From a virus, in UHGV virus genome UHGV-2078699: DNA of 4,928 nucleotides; one strand, given 5' to 3'. How positions within the stretch are numbered: the first letter of the stretch is position 1; every line of letters begins with the position of its first letter. This document shows positions 1-4,928 of the stretch, one piece after another. A program made the position numbers and the translations under genes. Below the pieces are notes generated by a model. The model made no database searches. It saw only the letters and a program-made list of their open reading frames with translations, and was not told where the DNA came from.

Positions 1-23
1 GGATTCGATTTTCGCAGCGGCCT

Positions 24-56
24 TTTCAACATAACGAGTCGTACATTATGCGCACC
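24..56 (-). other. dif-like XerC/XerD recombination site (putative prophage attachment junction), atypical spacing
   Basis: The minus strand reads GGTGCGCATAA-TGTACGACTCG-TTATGTTGAAA. The first 11 nt are identical to the XerC arm of E. coli dif (GGTGCGCATAATGTATATTATGTTAAAT, recalled from memory). The last 11 nt match the XerD arm TTATGTTAAAT at 9 of 11 positions. The two arms are separated by 11 nt rather than the canonical 6. Confidence 0.4.
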
Positions 57-94
57 AATGGTAAGGATGGCGGGAACTGGCGTTACCGGTGCCG

Positions 95-328
95 TCATTG
101 GTCACAGACCGTAATCCACTGGCCCAGGACGTCTTTCAGGCAATGTTGGCATAAATCCAGTTTTAAGCGATTACTGTCACCAAAAATTGAACCGTATCCA
201 GCTAAGTGATTAACAGACAGAAACTCATTGAACTCAATGTCATCTACCACCGTCTTCGCATGGCGACCACAGCGATCGCAGGTCTTCGCACATAACATTA
301 CAGTATCGCTGGATGTGAAAAATTGCAT
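95..328 (-). CDS. hypothetical small Cys-rich protein, zinc-ribbon-like (77 aa)
   Basis: ORF with ATG at 328..326 preceded by a strong SD (GAGGAGA, 5-nt spacer). The protein has C13-x3-C17-x2-C20 and C61-x2-C64 plus C75, i.e. two CxxC knuckles about 40 residues apart, typical of a zinc ribbon. A loose resemblance to YgiT/MqsA-type zinc-finger domains is from memory only. Confidence 0.5.
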   Translation of the reverse strand: MQFFTSSDTVMLCAKTCDRCGRHAKTVVDDIEFNEFLSVNHLAGYGSIFGDSNRLKLDLCQHCLKDVLGQWITVCDQ

Positions 329-399
329 TTTATCTCCTCGTAATGCTGCCGCGCCGAATCAGCAATAACGCTAAAAAAACAGAATTGTTCGGCTTGGCC

Positions 400-444
400 A
401 ACCCCTGACACTAACAAAAGCAAGTTTTGTCATTGTCAGGGGTT
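400..444. promoter_or_regulatory. 45-nt near-perfect inverted repeat (stem-loop) between the two small ORFs
   Basis: AACCCCTGACA (400..410) pairs with TGTCAGGGGTT (434..444), and ACAAAA (414..419) pairs with TTTTGT (425..430), around a 5-nt loop GCAAG with a 3-nt internal mismatch. On the minus strand it sits 1 nt after the ORF 446..754 stop codon. A T7 run follows about 20 nt further downstream, so it is not a canonical intrinsic terminator. Confidence 0.5.
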
Positions 445-445
445 A

Positions 446-754
446 TCATATAAACCAATAGACCGTCCTTACGCCATTCTGGTTATCAATAACATAGCCG
501 CATTGTTTCCTTAAAAATTCTTCTGCTAAATCAATGGCTTTTACAGAAATCTCATAAGAAGGAAGTAAAGTGTATCCTTTCCCTTCACTGGCAGCTGCTT
601 TGATCGCATCCAGAGTATTATCAATCAGTAACAGAGCAAGTGATGCTTCATTTACCTGAGCCGAAGAACTTCTGGCTGCAAGTGTCATTGTTTTTGCTTC
701 TTCCGCTGTAATCGTTCGTTCTGCCAGAGCAGATAAAATCCCATAAGAATCCAT
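446..754 (-). CDS. hypothetical protein (102 aa), unknown function
   Basis: ORF with ATG at 754..752 and a GGGG-containing SD 7 nt upstream. The protein is Ala/Leu-rich and helical-looking at the N-terminus with a beta-like C-terminus, and has no recognisable signal peptide or TM segment. I recognise no family. Confidence 0.45.
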   Translation of the reverse strand: MDSYGILSALAERTITAEEAKTMTLAARSSSAQVNEASLALLLIDNTLDAIKAAASEGKGYTLLPSYEISVKAIDLAEEFLRKQCGYVIDNQNGVRTVYWFI

Positions 755-774
755 TAGTTACCCCAATCAATAAT

Positions 775-834
775 GTCCATTTGATGGATAGCGAGCAGGG
801 CTTACGCACCTACCCGCTATCCATCAAAGTGGAC
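775..834. promoter_or_regulatory. long hairpin overlapping the gene IV stop codon (candidate terminator / packaging-signal-like element)
   Basis: GTCCATTTGATGGATAGCG (775..793) pairs with CGCTATCCATCAAAGTGGAC (815..834), giving a 19-bp stem with one bulged G and a 21-nt loop. The gene IV stop codon (824..826) lies inside the right arm. In Ff phages the packaging-signal hairpin begins immediately after gene IV. Confidence 0.45.
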
Positions 835-2089
835 GAATGATATGTGCTGTAAGCAAAATATACATAATACGCTGTTCATTGCTGTCTGCCTTGCTACTGA
901 AAATCCAGCCTATAAGAGGAATTTTACTTATAACTGGAACTGAACGCTCGGCATTGCTGAACGATGAATCGATAAGCCCCCCCAATAACAACGTCTGACC
1001 ATCCTTAATCTGGACTGTCGTCTGAATCTGGCGCTGATTAGTAATAATATCGGATGCCTGATCATCATTGCTGATTGAATCAGCGCGAGTGTCGATAGTC
1101 AGAACTAGTTGCCCGTTACCCATGACAACAGGCGTTACCTTGAGAGAAACGCCAACATCATGACGCTCGATAGTCTGAAACGGATTATTTACCCCGGCAG
1201 ATTCGCCCGTTACCTTTCCGGTGATAAACGGCACATTCTTACCTACGGAAATGTAACCAGTCTGACCAGACTGAGTAAGAATACGCGGCGTTGAAATCAC
1301 CTTAGAGCGTGAATTACTCTGGACAGCACGCAGAGACAGCGCCAACACGTTACCATCAAAAATACCAAAAGAACCGCCCGCCGTAGAAAGAGCGCTACCC
1401 AGTGCAGAAGTATTAAAGCCCCCCGCAACCTTATGACCGGATGCAGAACCTGCCGCAAACGATAAATCAACGCCATCAGACAAGCTGGTTTCAAACATCA
1501 GCGACTGAATGAGAACCTGATCGCGGGCAACATCCACAGAATTGATAAAATCGGACAGAACCGGCAGCAGCTCGTCAGGCGCAGAAACAATCAGCGAGTT
1601 ATTGCCTGGATAATCCACGACATTACCACCACCATTAGAATCAAGATAAATTTTAATCAGTTGCTGAACATCGGACGATCTAACTTTTGTCAGCTTAAAA
1701 TTTCTGACCGTAAGCGCCACAGGTACTGGCTGGTAAGATGGCTCAGAAGGAAAAGTATCATAAGACTGGTTATCAGAATCATCGGAATCCGAAACCATCT
1801 GTGAAGGTAATTTAGACGGCAAAGAGACTACCGCAGGATTGCCAGAAAGCATGACAAAACCGTTAGCATTCAGAACAGACTTAAAGAAATCATCAATATT
1901 TGTTGGATTAACATCAGCATTAAATACGGTTACGTTTCCTTTAATATCAGGATTAACAATAACAGGCTTGCCAGTTTTTGAAGAATACCACTGAACAAAT
2001 GAGCGAACAGATGAATTATTTAAATTAACAGTTTCAGCAGAAACGCAGAATGAATAGGCAAATAAAAAAGCAACAATAACAGAGCGCAT
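824..2089 (-). CDS. gIV: filamentous-phage gene IV protein (pIV outer-membrane secretin)
   Basis: The translation aligns along its length with M13/fd pIV as recalled, e.g. VPFITGxVTGESAxVNNPFQTIER, DGQTLLLGGL, IPLIG..FSS and a C-terminal ...RPL. The ATG at 2089..2087 is preceded by AGGAG and gives an N-terminal signal peptide MRSVIVAFLFAYSFCVSA. The 31 codons the ORF track adds upstream (to 2182) overlap the gene I 3' end and are rejected as the start. Confidence 0.92.
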   Translation of the reverse strand: MRSVIVAFLFAYSFCVSAETVNLNNSSVRSFVQWYSSKTGKPVIVNPDIKGNVTVFNADVNPTNIDDFFKSVLNANGFVMLSGNPAVVSLPSKLPSQMVSDSDDSDNQSYDTFPSEPSYQPVPVALTVRNFKLTKVRSSDVQQLIKIYLDSNGGGNVVDYPGNNSLIVSAPDELLPVLSDFINSVDVARDQVLIQSLMFETSLSDGVDLSFAAGSASGHKVAGGFNTSALGSALSTAGGSFGIFDGNVLALSLRAVQSNSRSKVISTPRILTQSGQTGYISVGKNVPFITGKVTGESAGVNNPFQTIERHDVGVSLKVTPVVMGNGQLVLTIDTRADSISNDDQASDIITNQRQIQTTVQIKDGQTLLLGGLIDSSFSNAERSVPVISKIPLIGWIFSSKADSNEQRIMYILLTAHIIRPL

Positions 2090-2096
2090 AATAATA

Positions 2097-2471
2097 TTAC
2101 TCCTGACAGGTAACAGTCTGTAAATAACGGCCTTTTCTAATAACAACACGACAGGCATCTTTAATATCAACGGAATAACCATCTTTAATCAAATCAAAAT
2201 ACTGATATTTCATACCTTTTGCATCAACAAACGTAACGGAAACGTCAAAGCCAAGTTGTGAAAAAGAATTAATAGAAAGTCGGGGTAAGTCACTGGACGA
2301 ATCAGGCGTTACCGCCCTCGCCTGTTCAGCATAAGCAGATTTAATAGCTGAGATTTCATCAACATTCTTTCCAGACTGGAGCCAGAAACCAAACGCAAGC
2401 CCCAGCGCCAAAAAAGAAAGCATTAATATAAGACGGTTCGATTTGCGAAAATAAATTTTAGTGAGGCGCAT
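2097..2471 (-). CDS. gXI: putative gene XI protein (pXI / pI*), in-frame internal start within gene I
   Basis: An in-frame ATG at 2471..2469 is codon 241 of gene I, the same residue index as the pXI start in M13 as recalled (MKLTKIY there, MRLTKIYF here). It lies just N-terminal to the TM segment, with an AGAGGA SD-like element about 12 nt upstream. Confidence 0.5.
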   Translation of the reverse strand: MRLTKIYFRKSNRLILMLSFLALGLAFGFWLQSGKNVDEISAIKSAYAEQARAVTPDSSSDLPRLSINSFSQLGFDVSVTFVDAKGMKYQYFDLIKDGYSVDIKDACRVVIRKGRYLQTVTCQE

Positions 2472-3191
2472 ATAATAATTAAATCCTCTGTGAACAGAAA
2501 ATTGACCGTGCGTGATAAATGGTGGCAAAAGCGAAAATGCGCCATGAGGATAATTATCTGTGAACGCTTGTTTGGTATTGTAAGCAGAATAAAGAGATTT
2601 TCCTGTATATATCCATTTATCAACAGTGATTGAATTAACATTATCACCATATTTGACAATGCCAAAGTGTACCTTTGGTAAAGAAAATCTCGCTCCTGAA
2701 ACCAAATTCATAATGGAGCCAACAAAAGGAATGTTTAATTTATCTGAACGGCGACAATAAACAACATGCTCAGCAAGCGCCAGACGAGCTTGCTTATCCA
2801 TTATCGAAATATCCTGAATCAAAAATATAATATCCCAGCCTAATTTTCTGGCATGTAAAAACCAGTCAATAACAGGTTGTCTGTCTTTATCACCCCATGA
2901 GCGGGAATTAAACCAAGTACCACATTCATCAAGTACAAGGAGGCCATTACGGGATTCATCGTAAGATGTATTCCCAATACCAATAGCAAGTAAATCATTT
3001 AATGAAGGCTTGTCAGGAATGCGAATAACGCGCGTTTTTTTCGCATAACGCCCAACCATAGGCATATTATGCAATTTAAGATCAAGATTAGTGGCAACAG
3101 GACAACCCTTAGCAAGTCTTTCCTGTATTCTGGAAACACTAACAAGTGTCTTGCCTGAGCCTAATTTGCCTGTTACTACATAAACCGCCAT
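2097..3191 (-). CDS. gI: filamentous-phage gene I protein (pI assembly ATPase, Zot-like)
   Basis: N-terminus MAVYVVTGKLGSGKTLVSV with Walker A GKLGSGKT and Walker B-like LLVLDECGTWF. Roughly 70% identity by eye to M13 pI as recalled (IDWFLHARKLGWDIIFL, ALAEHVVYCRR). A single TM segment LILMLSFLALGLAFGFWL lies near residue 255. The ATG at 3191..3189 directly follows the gene VI stop (TAAATG), with SD AGGGTGA. Confidence 0.95.
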   Translation of the reverse strand: MAVYVVTGKLGSGKTLVSVSRIQERLAKGCPVATNLDLKLHNMPMVGRYAKKTRVIRIPDKPSLNDLLAIGIGNTSYDESRNGLLVLDECGTWFNSRSWGDKDRQPVIDWFLHARKLGWDIIFLIQDISIMDKQARLALAEHVVYCRRSDKLNIPFVGSIMNLVSGARFSLPKVHFGIVKYGDNVNSITVDKWIYTGKSLYSAYNTKQAFTDNYPHGAFSLLPPFITHGQFSVHRGFNYYMRLTKIYFRKSNRLILMLSFLALGLAFGFWLQSGKNVDEISAIKSAYAEQARAVTPDSSSDLPRLSINSFSQLGFDVSVTFVDAKGMKYQYFDLIKDGYSVDIKDACRVVIRKGRYLQTVTCQE

Positions 3192-3533
3192 TTAAATCAC
3201 CCTGTTTGCATAATCAAGAAATTTTTGTTTTAAATCGAAAACAAAAACACTGATACGAGTAACCATAATAACGTTAACACACGCCTGAAAATGGTCAGGC
3301 AGTACAGACGCCATTAAATGGGAGAAATCAGCAGGTAAACCGTTGTACATGACCTCAGCAAGGTACTGCATTAAAAGCGTAACAGTTGTTGTAATTAATG
3401 CGACCAATGCAAAGGCGATTAATCCTGTTCTGGTAGCAAGTCGAGCTAAAAAACTCGCCACATAGCCAATAAACAAAGGAACAAGACCAATAAGAAAACG
3501 CAACAATGCAGGAATACCTAATAATAAAGGCAT
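3192..3533 (-). CDS. gVI: filamentous-phage gene VI protein (pVI minor coat protein)
   Basis: 113-aa hydrophobic protein MPLLLGIPALLRFL...FVFDLKQK, matching M13 pVI (MPVLLGIPLLLRFL...IFIFDVKQK, recalled). The ATG at 3533..3531 shares one nucleotide with the gene III stop (TGATG). The ORF track starts one codon earlier at a GTG, which I do not favour. Confidence 0.88.
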   Translation of the reverse strand: MPLLLGIPALLRFLIGLVPLFIGYVASFLARLATRTGLIAFALVALITTTVTLLMQYLAEVMYNGLPADFSHLMASVLPDHFQACVNVIMVTRISVFVFDLKQKFLDYANRVI

Positions 3534-4067
3534 CACTCACCCCCTTTGCGAAGCAATGAAGTTAAAGAAGTAAAGACATACCAGAACGTAAGGCAATAAA
3601 AAACCCATGAAAGAACATCTTTAATAGTCAGTAATTTATCGCAACCAATATCAATCTGATAAACCTCTCCGGGAAAAATAATAAAATCAGAGCAGCCGTT
3701 ACCATTGGGTAAATTAGGCAGCATAGCACCTTTATTTAAAAATGCTTCCCATAAAGCACCGTGAGAATCCTTTTCAATTCCCAATTCAGAATCAGCTAAA
3801 GTAGAAGCGCCATCTAATTCAGAGTCGCCCTTTCCATAACGAGAATCACCACCTGAAGGGTCAGCAAAACGGCCAGCCCCCCGCGTAAGATTGTTAATGG
3901 AATCGTCAAGACGATTTATATTATTCCTGGTTTGTTCATCGGCATTTTTTTTATCATCTGATGAAGTGTCTTTCTCCGTTAATTTATCATGAATATCGCT
4001 GGCTATTTTGGGTGAAGCACCTTCGATCGCAGACTGAATATCACCTTTAGAAAGACTGGAACCACTA
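3533..4067 (-). pseudogene. gIII: gene III (pIII) C-terminal fragment, interrupted by IS630 insertion
   Basis: The C-terminal roughly 175 codons resemble the pIII linker and C-terminal domain (NGNG, IDIGCDK vs M13 SIDCDK, hydrophobic anchor YVFTSL, terminal LLRKGGE vs ILRNKES). Upstream of about 4068 the frame continues into antisense IS630 sequence and the N1/N2 receptor-binding domains are absent. The 5' boundary is approximate, about 5 nt either way. Confidence 0.8.
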
Positions 4068-4928
4068 AATAGCTGCGCGGAATAGTAGATCACTGAAAGG
4101 GAACTCAGCCCGGATTGTGCGATCTGATCAATCGCCAAACCAACCAAAATCACCAACCGGACTGAGCGATGCCGATCATAGTACCAATACCCCGTGGCGA
4201 ACGACGCCTGATGCAGAAAGCTATTCATAAAACGCGTGATAAAAATCATGCCCGCAGACTCACGGCCATGCTGATGCTTCATCGGGGTGAACGGGTCAGC
4301 GATGTTGCCAGAACTCTCTGTTGTGCCCGTTCATCCGTTGGTCGCTGGATTAACTGGTTTACGCACTCAGGTATTGAAGGCCTGAAATCCTTACCCGCAG
4401 GGCGCTCCCGACGCTGGCCTTTTGAACATATCTGCACCCTGTTACGTGAGCTGATAAAGCATTCTCCCGGCGATTTTGGTTATCAACGTTCACGCTGGAG
4501 CACCGAATTACTGGCAATAAAAATCAATGAGATAACCGGTTGCCAGTTACATGCAGGAACCGTTCGCCGCTGGTTGCCATCTGCGGGGCTTGTATGGCGC
4601 AGGGCCGCGCCAACTCTGCGTATCCGTGACCCACATAAAGATGAAAAGATGGCGGTAATCCACAAAGCGCTGGATGAATGCAGCGCAGAGCATCCGGTAT
4701 TTTATGAAGATGAAGTGGATATCCACCTTAATCCTAAAATCGGTGCGGACTGGCAGTTGCGCGGACAGCAGAAACGGGTAGTGACGCCGGGGCAGAACGA
4801 AAAATACTATCTGGCCGGCGCACTGCACAGTGGCACGGGTAAAGTCAGCTACGTGGGCGGCAACAGCAAAAGTTCAGCGCTGTTTATCGCTCTGCTGAAG
4901 CACCTGAAAGCCACTTACCGGCGGGCGA
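4068..4928 (+). mobile_element. IS630-family insertion sequence, left end and most of transposase (partial; continues beyond window)
   Basis: The sequence encodes a transposase matching IS630 as I recall it. GC content rises sharply relative to the AT-rich phage genes (sampled 60-nt lines are about 33% GC in gene IV and about 70% in the transposase). The left boundary is placed after a CTA at 4065..4067, consistent with IS630 inserting at CTAG with TA duplication. The exact inverted-repeat end is not verified. Confidence 0.8.
4169..4928 (+). CDS. IS630-family transposase (Tc1/mariner-like DDE), 3' truncated by the window edge
   Basis: Plus-strand frame open from the ATG at 4169 to the end of the window (253 codons): MPIIVPIPRGERRLMQKAIHKTRDKNHARRLTAMLMLHRGERVSDVARTLCCARSSVGRWINWF (N-terminal HTH) ... 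DPHKDEKMAVIHKALDECSAEHPVFYEDEVDIHLNPKIGADWQLRGQQKRVVTPGQNEKYYLAGALHSGTGKVSYVGG. It is missing from the supplied ORF track, presumably because no stop codon falls inside the window. Confidence 0.9.
   Translation, partial: MPIIVPIPRGERRLMQKAIHKTRDKNHARRLTAMLMLHRGERVSDVARTLCCARSSVGRWINWFTHSGIEGLKSLPAGRSRRWPFEHICTLLRELIKHSPGDFGYQRSRWSTELLAIKINEITGCQLHAGTVRRWLPSAGLVWRRAAPTLRIRDPHKDEKMAVIHKALDECSAEHPVFYEDEVDIHLNPKIGADWQLRGQQKRVVTPGQNEKYYLAGALHSGTGKVSYVGGNSKSSALFIALLKHLKATYRRA

Follow-up and report, generated by a model that had tools for sequence, protein, structure and literature searches.

A long palindrome in UPphi-type filamentous prophages is probably the first hairpin of a phiX174-type primosome assembly site, the predicted minus-strand origin

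We analyzed a stretch of 4,928 nucleotides of viral DNA (UHGV virus genome UHGV-2078699; hereafter, the window) that carries a long, near-perfect palindrome between two small ORFs. This palindrome is probably the first hairpin (H1) of a primosome assembly site of the phiX174 type (PAS, also termed n'/factor Y site or ssi), which would serve as the minus-strand origin of a filamentous phage. H1 and a second, adjacent hairpin (H2) constitute a noncoding cassette (Table 1) whose structure is conserved, covaries and is specific to one strand, which occurs independently of the type of phage initiator, and which resembles sites in phiX174 and ColE1. PriA binding and priming at the cassette are what these comparisons would predict.

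Table 1. Positions of the cassette and neighboring features in the window.
Feature	Position	Strand	Description
Whole conserved cassette	342..447 (about 105 nt)	-	5' GAT, H1, G, H2, AGCATT
H1 (reported palindrome)	400..444	-	20-bp stem; 5-nt loop, CTTGC on the viral strand
Linker G, single unpaired	399..399	-	between H1 and H2, within the invariant junction GGGGTT-G-GCCAAGCCG
H2	348..398	-	stem GCCAAGCCGAA / TTCGGCGCGGC; conserved 2x2 internal loop, AA opposite GC
Hairpin I2	780..828	-	overlaps the secretin (gIV) stop codon; outside the cassette
ORF102	446..754	-	upstream accessory ORF, variable between phages; unknown ORF in PMC7307601
ORF77	95..328	-	downstream zinc-ribbon-like accessory ORF; variable or absent in other cassette phages
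dif-like attP	24..56	-	perfect XerC arm GGTGCGCATAA at 46-56; read from the sequence

The window belongs to an inovirus prophage of the UPphi/YpfPhi/CUS-1 group that is integrated at dif. The genes near the palindrome are all located on the minus strand, and they comprise a pIII remnant, pVI (DUF5455), pI (Zot), the pIV secretin, and two small ORFs, i.e., the distal half of the phage. Positions 1-4067 are 99-100% identical in 47 complete E. coli genomes, while from about position 4068 onward the window consists of an IS630-family element inserted in gIII. In strain 1368KP, two tandem prophage copies of 8,670 bp each are present beside hipA, at dif. The UPphi901 group has been described as having IKe-like structural genes, gII and gV genes that are more than 85% identical to those of YpfPhi, and two unknown ORFs where IKe and M13 have intergenic DNA (PMC7307601); neither that paper nor a review of YpfPhi mentions hairpins or origins. 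The CUS-1 prophage of UTI89 is nearly identical to YpfPhi.

Of 5426 E. coli genomes, 166 matched a 76-nt query containing the palindrome. The median was two “places” per genome, which correspond to a single palindromic copy counted once on each strand. All three contexts that were inspected are dif-integrated inovirus prophages, and each related locus retrieved is from an inovirus. The palindrome was also identified in five records of the plasmid collection; two of these, small circles of 7.9 and 10.2 kb, were examined and proved to be replicative forms of filamentous phages.

The arms of the palindrome (400-419 and 425-444) are 20 nt each and are complementary at 18 of 20 positions (90%); read on the minus (coding) strand, a G.T wobble accounts for one of the two positions that lack a Watson-Crick pair. 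The 101 nt around the palindrome fold with z-scores of -5.5 as RNA, -6.1 as minus-strand DNA and -5.0 as plus-strand DNA, and none of 200 dinucleotide shuffles folded as well, as RNA or as DNA of either strand. An earlier note on this DNA, made from the letters alone, had described a near-perfect palindrome with a 20-bp stem and had suggested structure prediction as a check, and its description holds: the arms match and the fold is far beyond that of the shuffles. The placement given there was right as well, i.e., 1 nt after the ORF102 stop codon (446-448), about 70 nt before the zinc-ribbon ORF (71 nt separate the stem end from the ORF77 ATG at 326-328), and about 20 nt from a run of seven T (373-379, A7 on the plus strand; 20 nt between the run and the H1 stem). 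A search of Rfam with positions 1-900 (E up to 10) returned only meaningless miRNA-like hairpin matches, a promoter scan gave nothing, and no conserved hexamers were found in a visual search for -35/-10 mimicry across coaxially stacked H1 and H2. It is worth noting that the CTTG of the H1 loop loosely resembles the superfamily I Rep nick motif reported for phiLf.

The earlier note could not show that the minus strand carries the genes and is the functional strand, nor that there are two further hairpins, the conserved one at 398-348 (H2) and a 20-bp one at 780-828 (I2). The packaged strand of inoviruses has the sense of the genes, and the viral strand corresponds to the minus strand of the window, on which GAT, H1 (444-400), the linker (399), H2, and AGCATT follow one another. 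The 5' arm of H2 occupies 398-388 and the 3' arm 358-348, and its T-rich loop contains the T7 run together with a small inner hairpin. H1 is followed by GGCCAAGCCG and by no T tract, the T7 run being located inside the H2 loop. The minimum free energy (MFE) fold of the window cassette as a single strand yields exactly H1 and H2, and both hairpins were likewise predicted in all nine inovirus variants folded and in three microviruses, with MFE pairing in the H2 region that deviates from the consensus stem in L018, pB72D, and FL68.

The bounds of the cassette are sharp, with 85% identity over 106 nt between the UPphi-type unit and CUS-1. Between the UPphi-type prophage and the CUS-1/YpfPhi prophages, only gII and gV, ORF140, a 41-bp dif-like attP and the cassette (342-447) are conserved, in contrast to the structural genes and the small ORFs on either side of the palindrome. 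Two of these segments, the cassette and the attP segment (42-82), are the only purely noncoding blocks common to the UPphi-type unit and CUS-1. The downstream distance from the cassette to the dif-like attP (24-56) is about 290 nt. The flanking ORFs vary between phages or are missing, which argues against reading the palindrome as a locus-specific regulatory element of the two “cargo” ORFs between which the earlier note had placed it.

We collected 21 distinct variants of the cassette from E. coli, Yersinia pestis, Klebsiella, Brenneria, Phytobacter, and IMG/VR contigs. The 16-mer GGGGTTGGCCAAGCCG was the search pattern for IMG/VR, and its invariance among the IMG/VR copies is therefore partly due to ascertainment; it matched 52 stretches, of which about 20 were chance matches without the cassette. 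A gapped-pattern scan of IMG/VR, in which none of 77 newly fetched loci gave a match to the covariance model described below, was used as a negative control. In the alignment of H1, 92% of the cells are paired, and double changes occur in four pairs, with three types of Watson-Crick pairs at stem position 8; the observed covariation score was matched by none of 500 shuffles. Across all comparisons, double changes are seen at stem positions 4, 7, 13, and 16. Compensatory changes at positions 4 and 16 are found in a more distant copy (L085), and L088 contributes further changes at the same two positions. Positions 13/14 are mostly T.G and G.T, forming tandem wobbles on the viral strand in 10-15 of 18 variants. 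These wobbles pair on the viral strand only.

H2 shows covariation of its own. In L085, the arms GCC-AA-GCCGCA / TGCGGC-GC-GGC are replaced by a perfect, compensated stem (ACCTGGCCGCA / TGCGGCCAGGT), and the position following CCG covaries among variants (A-T vs. C-G). The H2 loop is variable in sequence and constrained in length, with 23-26 nt between the 13-nt arms in all 21 variants. The most divergent H1 was found in the Citrobacter plasmid pB72D, the replicative form of an inovirus, in which the upper two-thirds of H1 are unrelated in sequence, yet paired, and the loop is not CTTG, whereas the junction and H2 are conserved. The cassette always points the same way as the core genes and the IKe-like packaging signal. 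Overall, H1 is under selection as a structure on a single strand, and the base of H1, the junction, and H2 hold sequence information.

The cassette co-occurs with three types of initiators, namely the Ypf-type gpII, the gpII of L046 and L018, and the Rep_trans protein of pB72D. The L046/L018 gpII is without significant BLASTP similarity to either Ypf-type or IKe gpII (E 0.002-0.005 over about 50 aa), and L046 carries an Ff-type gV. The accompanying morphogenesis modules, IKe-like or CUS-1-like, are also of at least two unrelated kinds. Conversely, elements with gpII proteins that are 67-74% identical, namely the Salmonella satellite-like L064 and L065 and the E. coli element L066, are without the cassette. 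The presence of the same cassette beside unrelated initiators and morphogenesis modules suggests recognition by a host factor, and the comparison points to a cassette that would work through host factors, independently of the phage's own initiator.

Only inovirus copies, 18 in total, went into the covariance model (R1), which was then run with filters off. In the whole phiX174 genome, the sole strong match of R1 was at 2302-2372 on the plus strand (36.4 bits; E about 1e-8, a rough value as are all R1 E-values, because the model calibration was shortened), and the next scored 11 bits. R1 also matched the F-G intergenic regions of the microviruses PJNS002 (43.4 bits) and FL68 (30.2 bits). In ColE1, it matched 1532-1609 on the minus strand (36.3 bits; next best 12 bits), adjoining rop and outside the annotated coding genes of the ColE1 record; we take this stretch to be the factor Y/n' effector site mapped in the 1980s, ssiB or pas-BL. 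All secondary matches in the phiX174, microvirus, and ColE1 targets scored 15 bits or lower. Unrelated viral contigs from IMG/VR, 691 kb in total, gave no match with an E-value of 0.001 or lower. In the inovirus loci, matches of R1 outside the cassettes were limited to echoes of H1 on the reverse strand and a single degenerate hairpin resembling H1 (L088, 38 bits).

The likeness to phiX174 needed a structure-aware model, as blastn of the cassette against the phage collection gave no match, and plain Smith-Waterman alignment to phiX174 is marginal: 8 of 300 shuffles reached the score of the CUS-1 copy, and the window copy was not significant. Plain alignment being weak, the claim of homology rests on the joint scoring of sequence and structure and on short exact motifs. 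Among the latter, the junction 14-mer GGGGTTGRCCAAGC occurs once in phiX174 (2346-2359) and in none of 200 shuffles. The F-G intergenic region of phiX174 reads TTATAACGCCGAAGCGGTAAAAATTTTAATTTTTGCCGCTGAGGGGTTGACCAAGCGAAGCGCGGTAGG. The cassette and the known sites have in common the start ATAACGCC, a mismatch at stem position 4, the junction GGGGTTG(A/G)CCAAGC, the AA/GC internal loop of H2, and a trailing AG. The matched regions of phiX174 and ColE1 coincide with sites of host-dependent priming. The F-G hairpin of phiX174 overlaps ori(-) and is the PriA binding site, and a shorter functional hairpin is located just downstream at 2353-2373 (bioRxiv 10.64898/2026.07.25.740675). At a primosome assembly site, PriA, PriB, PriC, and DnaT load DnaB on SSB-coated DNA (PMC5778457), and ColE1-type origins possess the primosome sites ssiA and ssiB (PMC3167613).

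Four features that define a PAS can be recognized in the cassette. It is a single-stranded DNA element in the range of ~70-100 nt that folds into two adjacent hairpins; its similarity to defined prototypes is specific, in both sequence and structure; it is orientation-specific on the single-stranded template strand, where the sense of the strand is taken from general knowledge of inoviruses; and, from the comparative evidence, it is independent of the initiator of the replicon. A PAS further activates the PriA ATPase and allows DnaB to be loaded and primers to be made on SSB-coated DNA in a manner dependent on PriA, PriB, DnaT, and DnaC, which the cassette would be predicted to do as well.

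Several other readings of the palindrome were considered. One is an element acting at the RNA level at the end of the viral-sense operon, i.e., a terminator or attenuator, an RNase III site, or a 3'-end stabilizer between ORF102 and ORF77, which we regard as unlikely. The mRNA has the same sense as the viral strand and forms the hairpin equally well (-35.5 kcal/mol as RNA), starting 1 nt past a stop codon. In addition, terminator T_F overlaps the phiX174 counterpart, in which a U tract comes after the short second hairpin (bioRxiv 10.64898/2026.07.25.740675), and H2 is followed by TTTT in pB72D and Brenneria. However, there is no U tract right after H1, nor after H2 in the window, and a terminator scan of positions 1-1000 identified no intrinsic-terminator pattern, while a canonical GC-rich hairpin followed by T5 is already present in the attP region, about 300 nt downstream of the cassette. 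These observations agree with the earlier note, which had not regarded the palindrome as a textbook intrinsic terminator. Furthermore, several traits of the cassette would be superfluous in a terminator, namely its invariant single-stranded blocks, an H2 loop held to a narrow range of lengths, and its specific similarity to the ColE1 site, and the ORFs downstream are variable or absent. Nevertheless, the cassette may have a secondary role at the RNA level beside its DNA function, comparable to the overlap of the phiX174 counterpart with T_F.

The second reading is a plus-strand (rolling-circle) origin, at which gpII would bind and nick. We initially favored this reading, as the cassette travels with gII and gV between UPphi and CUS-1/YpfPhi; the invariant blocks also suggest sequence-specific recognition, and the two neighboring hairpins, whose T-rich loop closes with T(G/A)AT beside a stem arm, recall the nick hairpin of Ff/IKe (IKe 6554-6599). 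It was dropped over the unrelated initiators and the loop of pB72D, and it now appears very unlikely. The cassette is kept, with compensatory changes, beside unrelated or very distant initiators (L046/L018 and pB72D), it is lacking from the elements with 67-74% identical gpII, and the CTTG loop is not conserved in pB72D. Moreover, the matches in phiX174 and ColE1 are to host-dependent priming sites and not to the plus-strand origins of phiX174 or IKe.

A double-stranded operator for a dimeric phage regulator or a neighboring small protein, as offered in the earlier note, is highly improbable. The palindrome does lie between two small ORFs, one of which (ORF77) has a zinc-ribbon-like motif, and a symmetric site for a dimer also predicts covariation in the inverted repeat. 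Yet the regulators (ORF60, the 148-aa HTH protein, and others) and the flanking ORFs differ or are absent among phages with the cassette, and the upper stem is wholly replaced in pB72D and the microviruses with pairing kept. Tolerance of G.T wobbles on one strand only, and a partner hairpin (H2) that is not palindromic, are also not expected of an operator.

We find it equally hard to credit that the palindrome is the packaging (morphogenetic) signal of the filamentous phage, although it is a long, imperfect viral-strand hairpin in a region like the Ff intergenic region, and although an obvious packaging hairpin of the IKe type was not seen after gIV in CUS-1. A separate hairpin, I2, overlaps the gIV stop codon as in IKe, and it aligns to the IKe stem-loop annotated as “morphogenetic signal” (6141-6196), with which it shares the core GGGTAGGTGCG..AGCCCTGC. 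I2 is thus the probable packaging signal, and the packaging-type hairpin proposed in the earlier note is to be sought there rather than at 400-444. The cassette, by contrast, is common to phages with unrelated sets of pVII, pIX, pI, and pIV, and it matches phiX174 and ColE1, which have no packaging of the inovirus type. Finally, a generic dispersed repeat (REP/IRU/MITE-like) without a locus-specific role, which the earlier note had named as the finding that would overturn its reading and which the REP-like size of the palindrome and its enterobacterial genome might suggest, can be set aside given about one copy per prophage, the small share of E. coli genomes with matches, and the filamentous-prophage contexts.

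These exclusions leave an orientation-specific signal for a host factor in a region like the Ff intergenic region, which argues for a complementary-strand origin. The rest of the genome is consistent with this assignment. The complete circular genome L096 has no homolog of the minus- or plus-strand origins of IKe, and only the core of the packaging signal was found when the IKe intergenic region was searched against the complete UPphi genome (blastn-short). The other noncoding stretches of L096 are the packaging signal, attP with a terminator, promoter regions, and a terminator after gVIII, and the cassette is its only noncoding block without another obvious role. Among the three alternatives that the earlier note had offered, the evidence supports the origin hairpin of a single-stranded DNA phage.

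If the cassette is a PAS, its action can be outlined as follows. After infection, or after single strands have been produced by rolling-circle replication, the SSB-coated viral strand would expose H1 and H2 as a fork-like structure that might be recognized by host PriA. PriA, with PriB, DnaT, and DnaC, would then load DnaB and DnaG, and the primers made would allow complementary-strand synthesis, converting the single strand to the replicative form. The cassette would therefore be a minus-strand origin that replaces the RNA-polymerase-type origin of Ff and IKe.

With the PAS reading, the one conserved noncoding block that had no explanation in the UPphi/YpfPhi/CUS-1 prophages receives a function, and dependence on PriA, PriB, and DnaT is predicted. 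The element itself is of a familiar kind, and the novelty would be its presence in a type of replicon where it was not expected. The literature searched contained no paper linking primosome assembly sites to filamentous phages, and an earlier mention in the original CUS-1/YpfPhi papers is possible. The covariance model is also a tool to annotate minus-strand origins in inovirus prophages, which normally go unannotated.

More broadly, we tentatively suggest that the PAS could be a horizontally mobile noncoding module, essentially one two-hairpin signal that has passed between Microviridae, ColE1-type plasmids, and dif-integrating Inoviridae whatever the initiator of each replicon, in which case the enterobacterial group of these inoviruses would be PriA-dependent and the inovirus version would form a distinct subclass. 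A small cassette holding a host-recognized origin might then be able to pass from one virus family to another and to or from plasmids. Some prophages of the UPphi/YpfPhi/CUS-1 group are linked to virulence in Y. pestis and E. coli K1. If the mobile-module reading is true, YpfPhi of Yersinia pestis and CUS-1 of E. coli K1 would depend on the PriA replication-restart pathway, and the enlarged, T-rich loop of H2 would be an extra functional part, such as a region where primers start or a contact for a second protein.

With respect to known systems, the minus-strand origin of Ff and IKe (hairpins B and C) is the positional counterpart of the cassette. Both consist of two adjacent viral-strand hairpins with the same proposed job, and both are located downstream of gIV and the packaging signal. 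However, the two have no similarity in sequence or in the model. In Ff and IKe, complementary-strand synthesis is begun by the host RNA polymerase, in this case the holoenzyme, whereas the PriA primosome proposed here is the hallmark of phiX174 and ColE1-type replicons. The complementary-strand origin of G4 is likewise a single-strand initiation signal composed of intergenic hairpins in a single-stranded DNA phage, but it is recognized directly by the DnaG primase. R1 gave nothing above 8 bits in either G4 or IKe, and it showed no likeness to the IKe hairpins at 6333-6438 or to the G4 origin at 3884-4019. A G4-type primase origin was ruled out on this lack of similarity and because no CTG start site after H1 is conserved among the variants.

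The ColE1 site resembles the cassette. Its first hairpin reads CCCGG..CAGCTTGTCTG..CCGGG and includes the CTTG loop, and its second reads GCTGACAAGCCC-GTCA-GGGCGCGTCAGC, with the same AA/GC internal loop and a trailing AGC. It differs in the 4-nt loop of H2, compared to ~30 nt of T-rich sequence in the inovirus cassette, and in the base of H1, which is GC-rich in ColE1 and AAC/GTT in the inovirus cassette. It also serves a theta-replicating plasmid, where priming takes place on the displaced strand, while the cassette is found in an inovirus.

The PAS of phiX174 is also close to the cassette. The loop and upper stem of H1 differ in sequence between phiX174 and the inovirus cassette, and H2 of phiX174 is a mini-hairpin with a GAA loop, whereas the inovirus H2 has two extra stem pairs and a length-constrained T-rich loop. 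PriA dependence is proven in the microvirus and is predicted for the inovirus by homology. In both cases, however, the packaged strand forms an imperfect hairpin of 20-22 bp, with 21 bp in phiX174, that starts with ATAACGCC and ends with GGGGTT; position 4 of its stem is mismatched and its apex is rich in A/T. A one-base linker comes next, and then a second stem (NCC-AA-GC / GC-GC-GGN) that leads into AG. Like the PAS of phiX174, the inovirus cassette appears to depend on the host rather than on the initiator of the replicon.

The attachment-protein gene gIII is interrupted in the window by an IS630-family transposase gene, and similarity to intact prophages ends at 4067; this copy of the prophage is therefore probably unable to produce infectious virions. 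It is also because of the IS630-family element that 1328 genomes match the window.

Features of the window outside the proposed PAS cassette
Feature	Position	Strand	Remarks
dif-like attP region	13-56	minus	complete form in L096 (circular UPphi genome), 1996-2137
Second hairpin	780-828	minus	20-bp stem; overlaps secretin stop codon
Secretin, mechanical ORF	824-2182	minus	452 aa
Secretin, equivalent of RefSeq annotation	824-2089		421 aa
gIII	3533-4067	minus	interrupted
IS630-family transposase gene	~4068-4928	plus	HTH_32, HTH_23, DDE_3 domains

The mechanical secretin ORF begins farther upstream than in the RefSeq annotation and would run into the end of the Zot gene; of the two starts, the shorter is the more plausible. 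At the other end of the secretin gene, the second hairpin aligns to the IKe stem-loop annotated as 'morphogenetic signal', with which it has the core GGGTAGGTGCG..AGCCCTGC in common, and a compensated form is present in the APEC E19057 relative. We regard this hairpin as the probable packaging signal.

Two further observations concern the compared loci. A satellite-like element of Salmonella enterica (L064 9478-12600, and L065) carries genes for an HTH regulator, gII (74% identical), an Ff-type gV, and two small ORFs, with no morphogenesis genes. After it, three hairpins with 22-bp stems lie clustered together (12408-12591); the covariance model search did not find the PAS cassette in this element. 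In the contig L088, which holds a full cassette at 15821-15927, there is also a degenerate second hairpin resembling the cassette hairpin H1 (5512-5574), located 4.5 kb upstream of gII and followed by GGCCGCAGG, with the second cassette hairpin, H2, absent. This hairpin may be what is left of another element.

Reverse-oriented accessory genes adjoin attP (L001 16555-17626; L096 2138-2872) and differ among otherwise near-identical phages, encoding a DpnII/MboI-like nuclease and DUF6953 in E. coli 1368KP and a Doc-family toxin in the Salmonella circular form. The position resembles a cargo hotspot. Beside the dif-like attP, whose XerC arm is perfect (GGTGCGCATAA), lies a GC-rich hairpin of 14 bp without mismatches; with runs of A and T on its flanks, it has the appearance of a bidirectional terminator. 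In the circular genome, the single strand is also predicted to fold so that the dif-like site pairs with an inverted partial copy, CGTCATTGTGCGAACC; only the 5' arm is included in the window, and the arrangement brings to mind the attP of CTXphi in its folded, single-stranded form.
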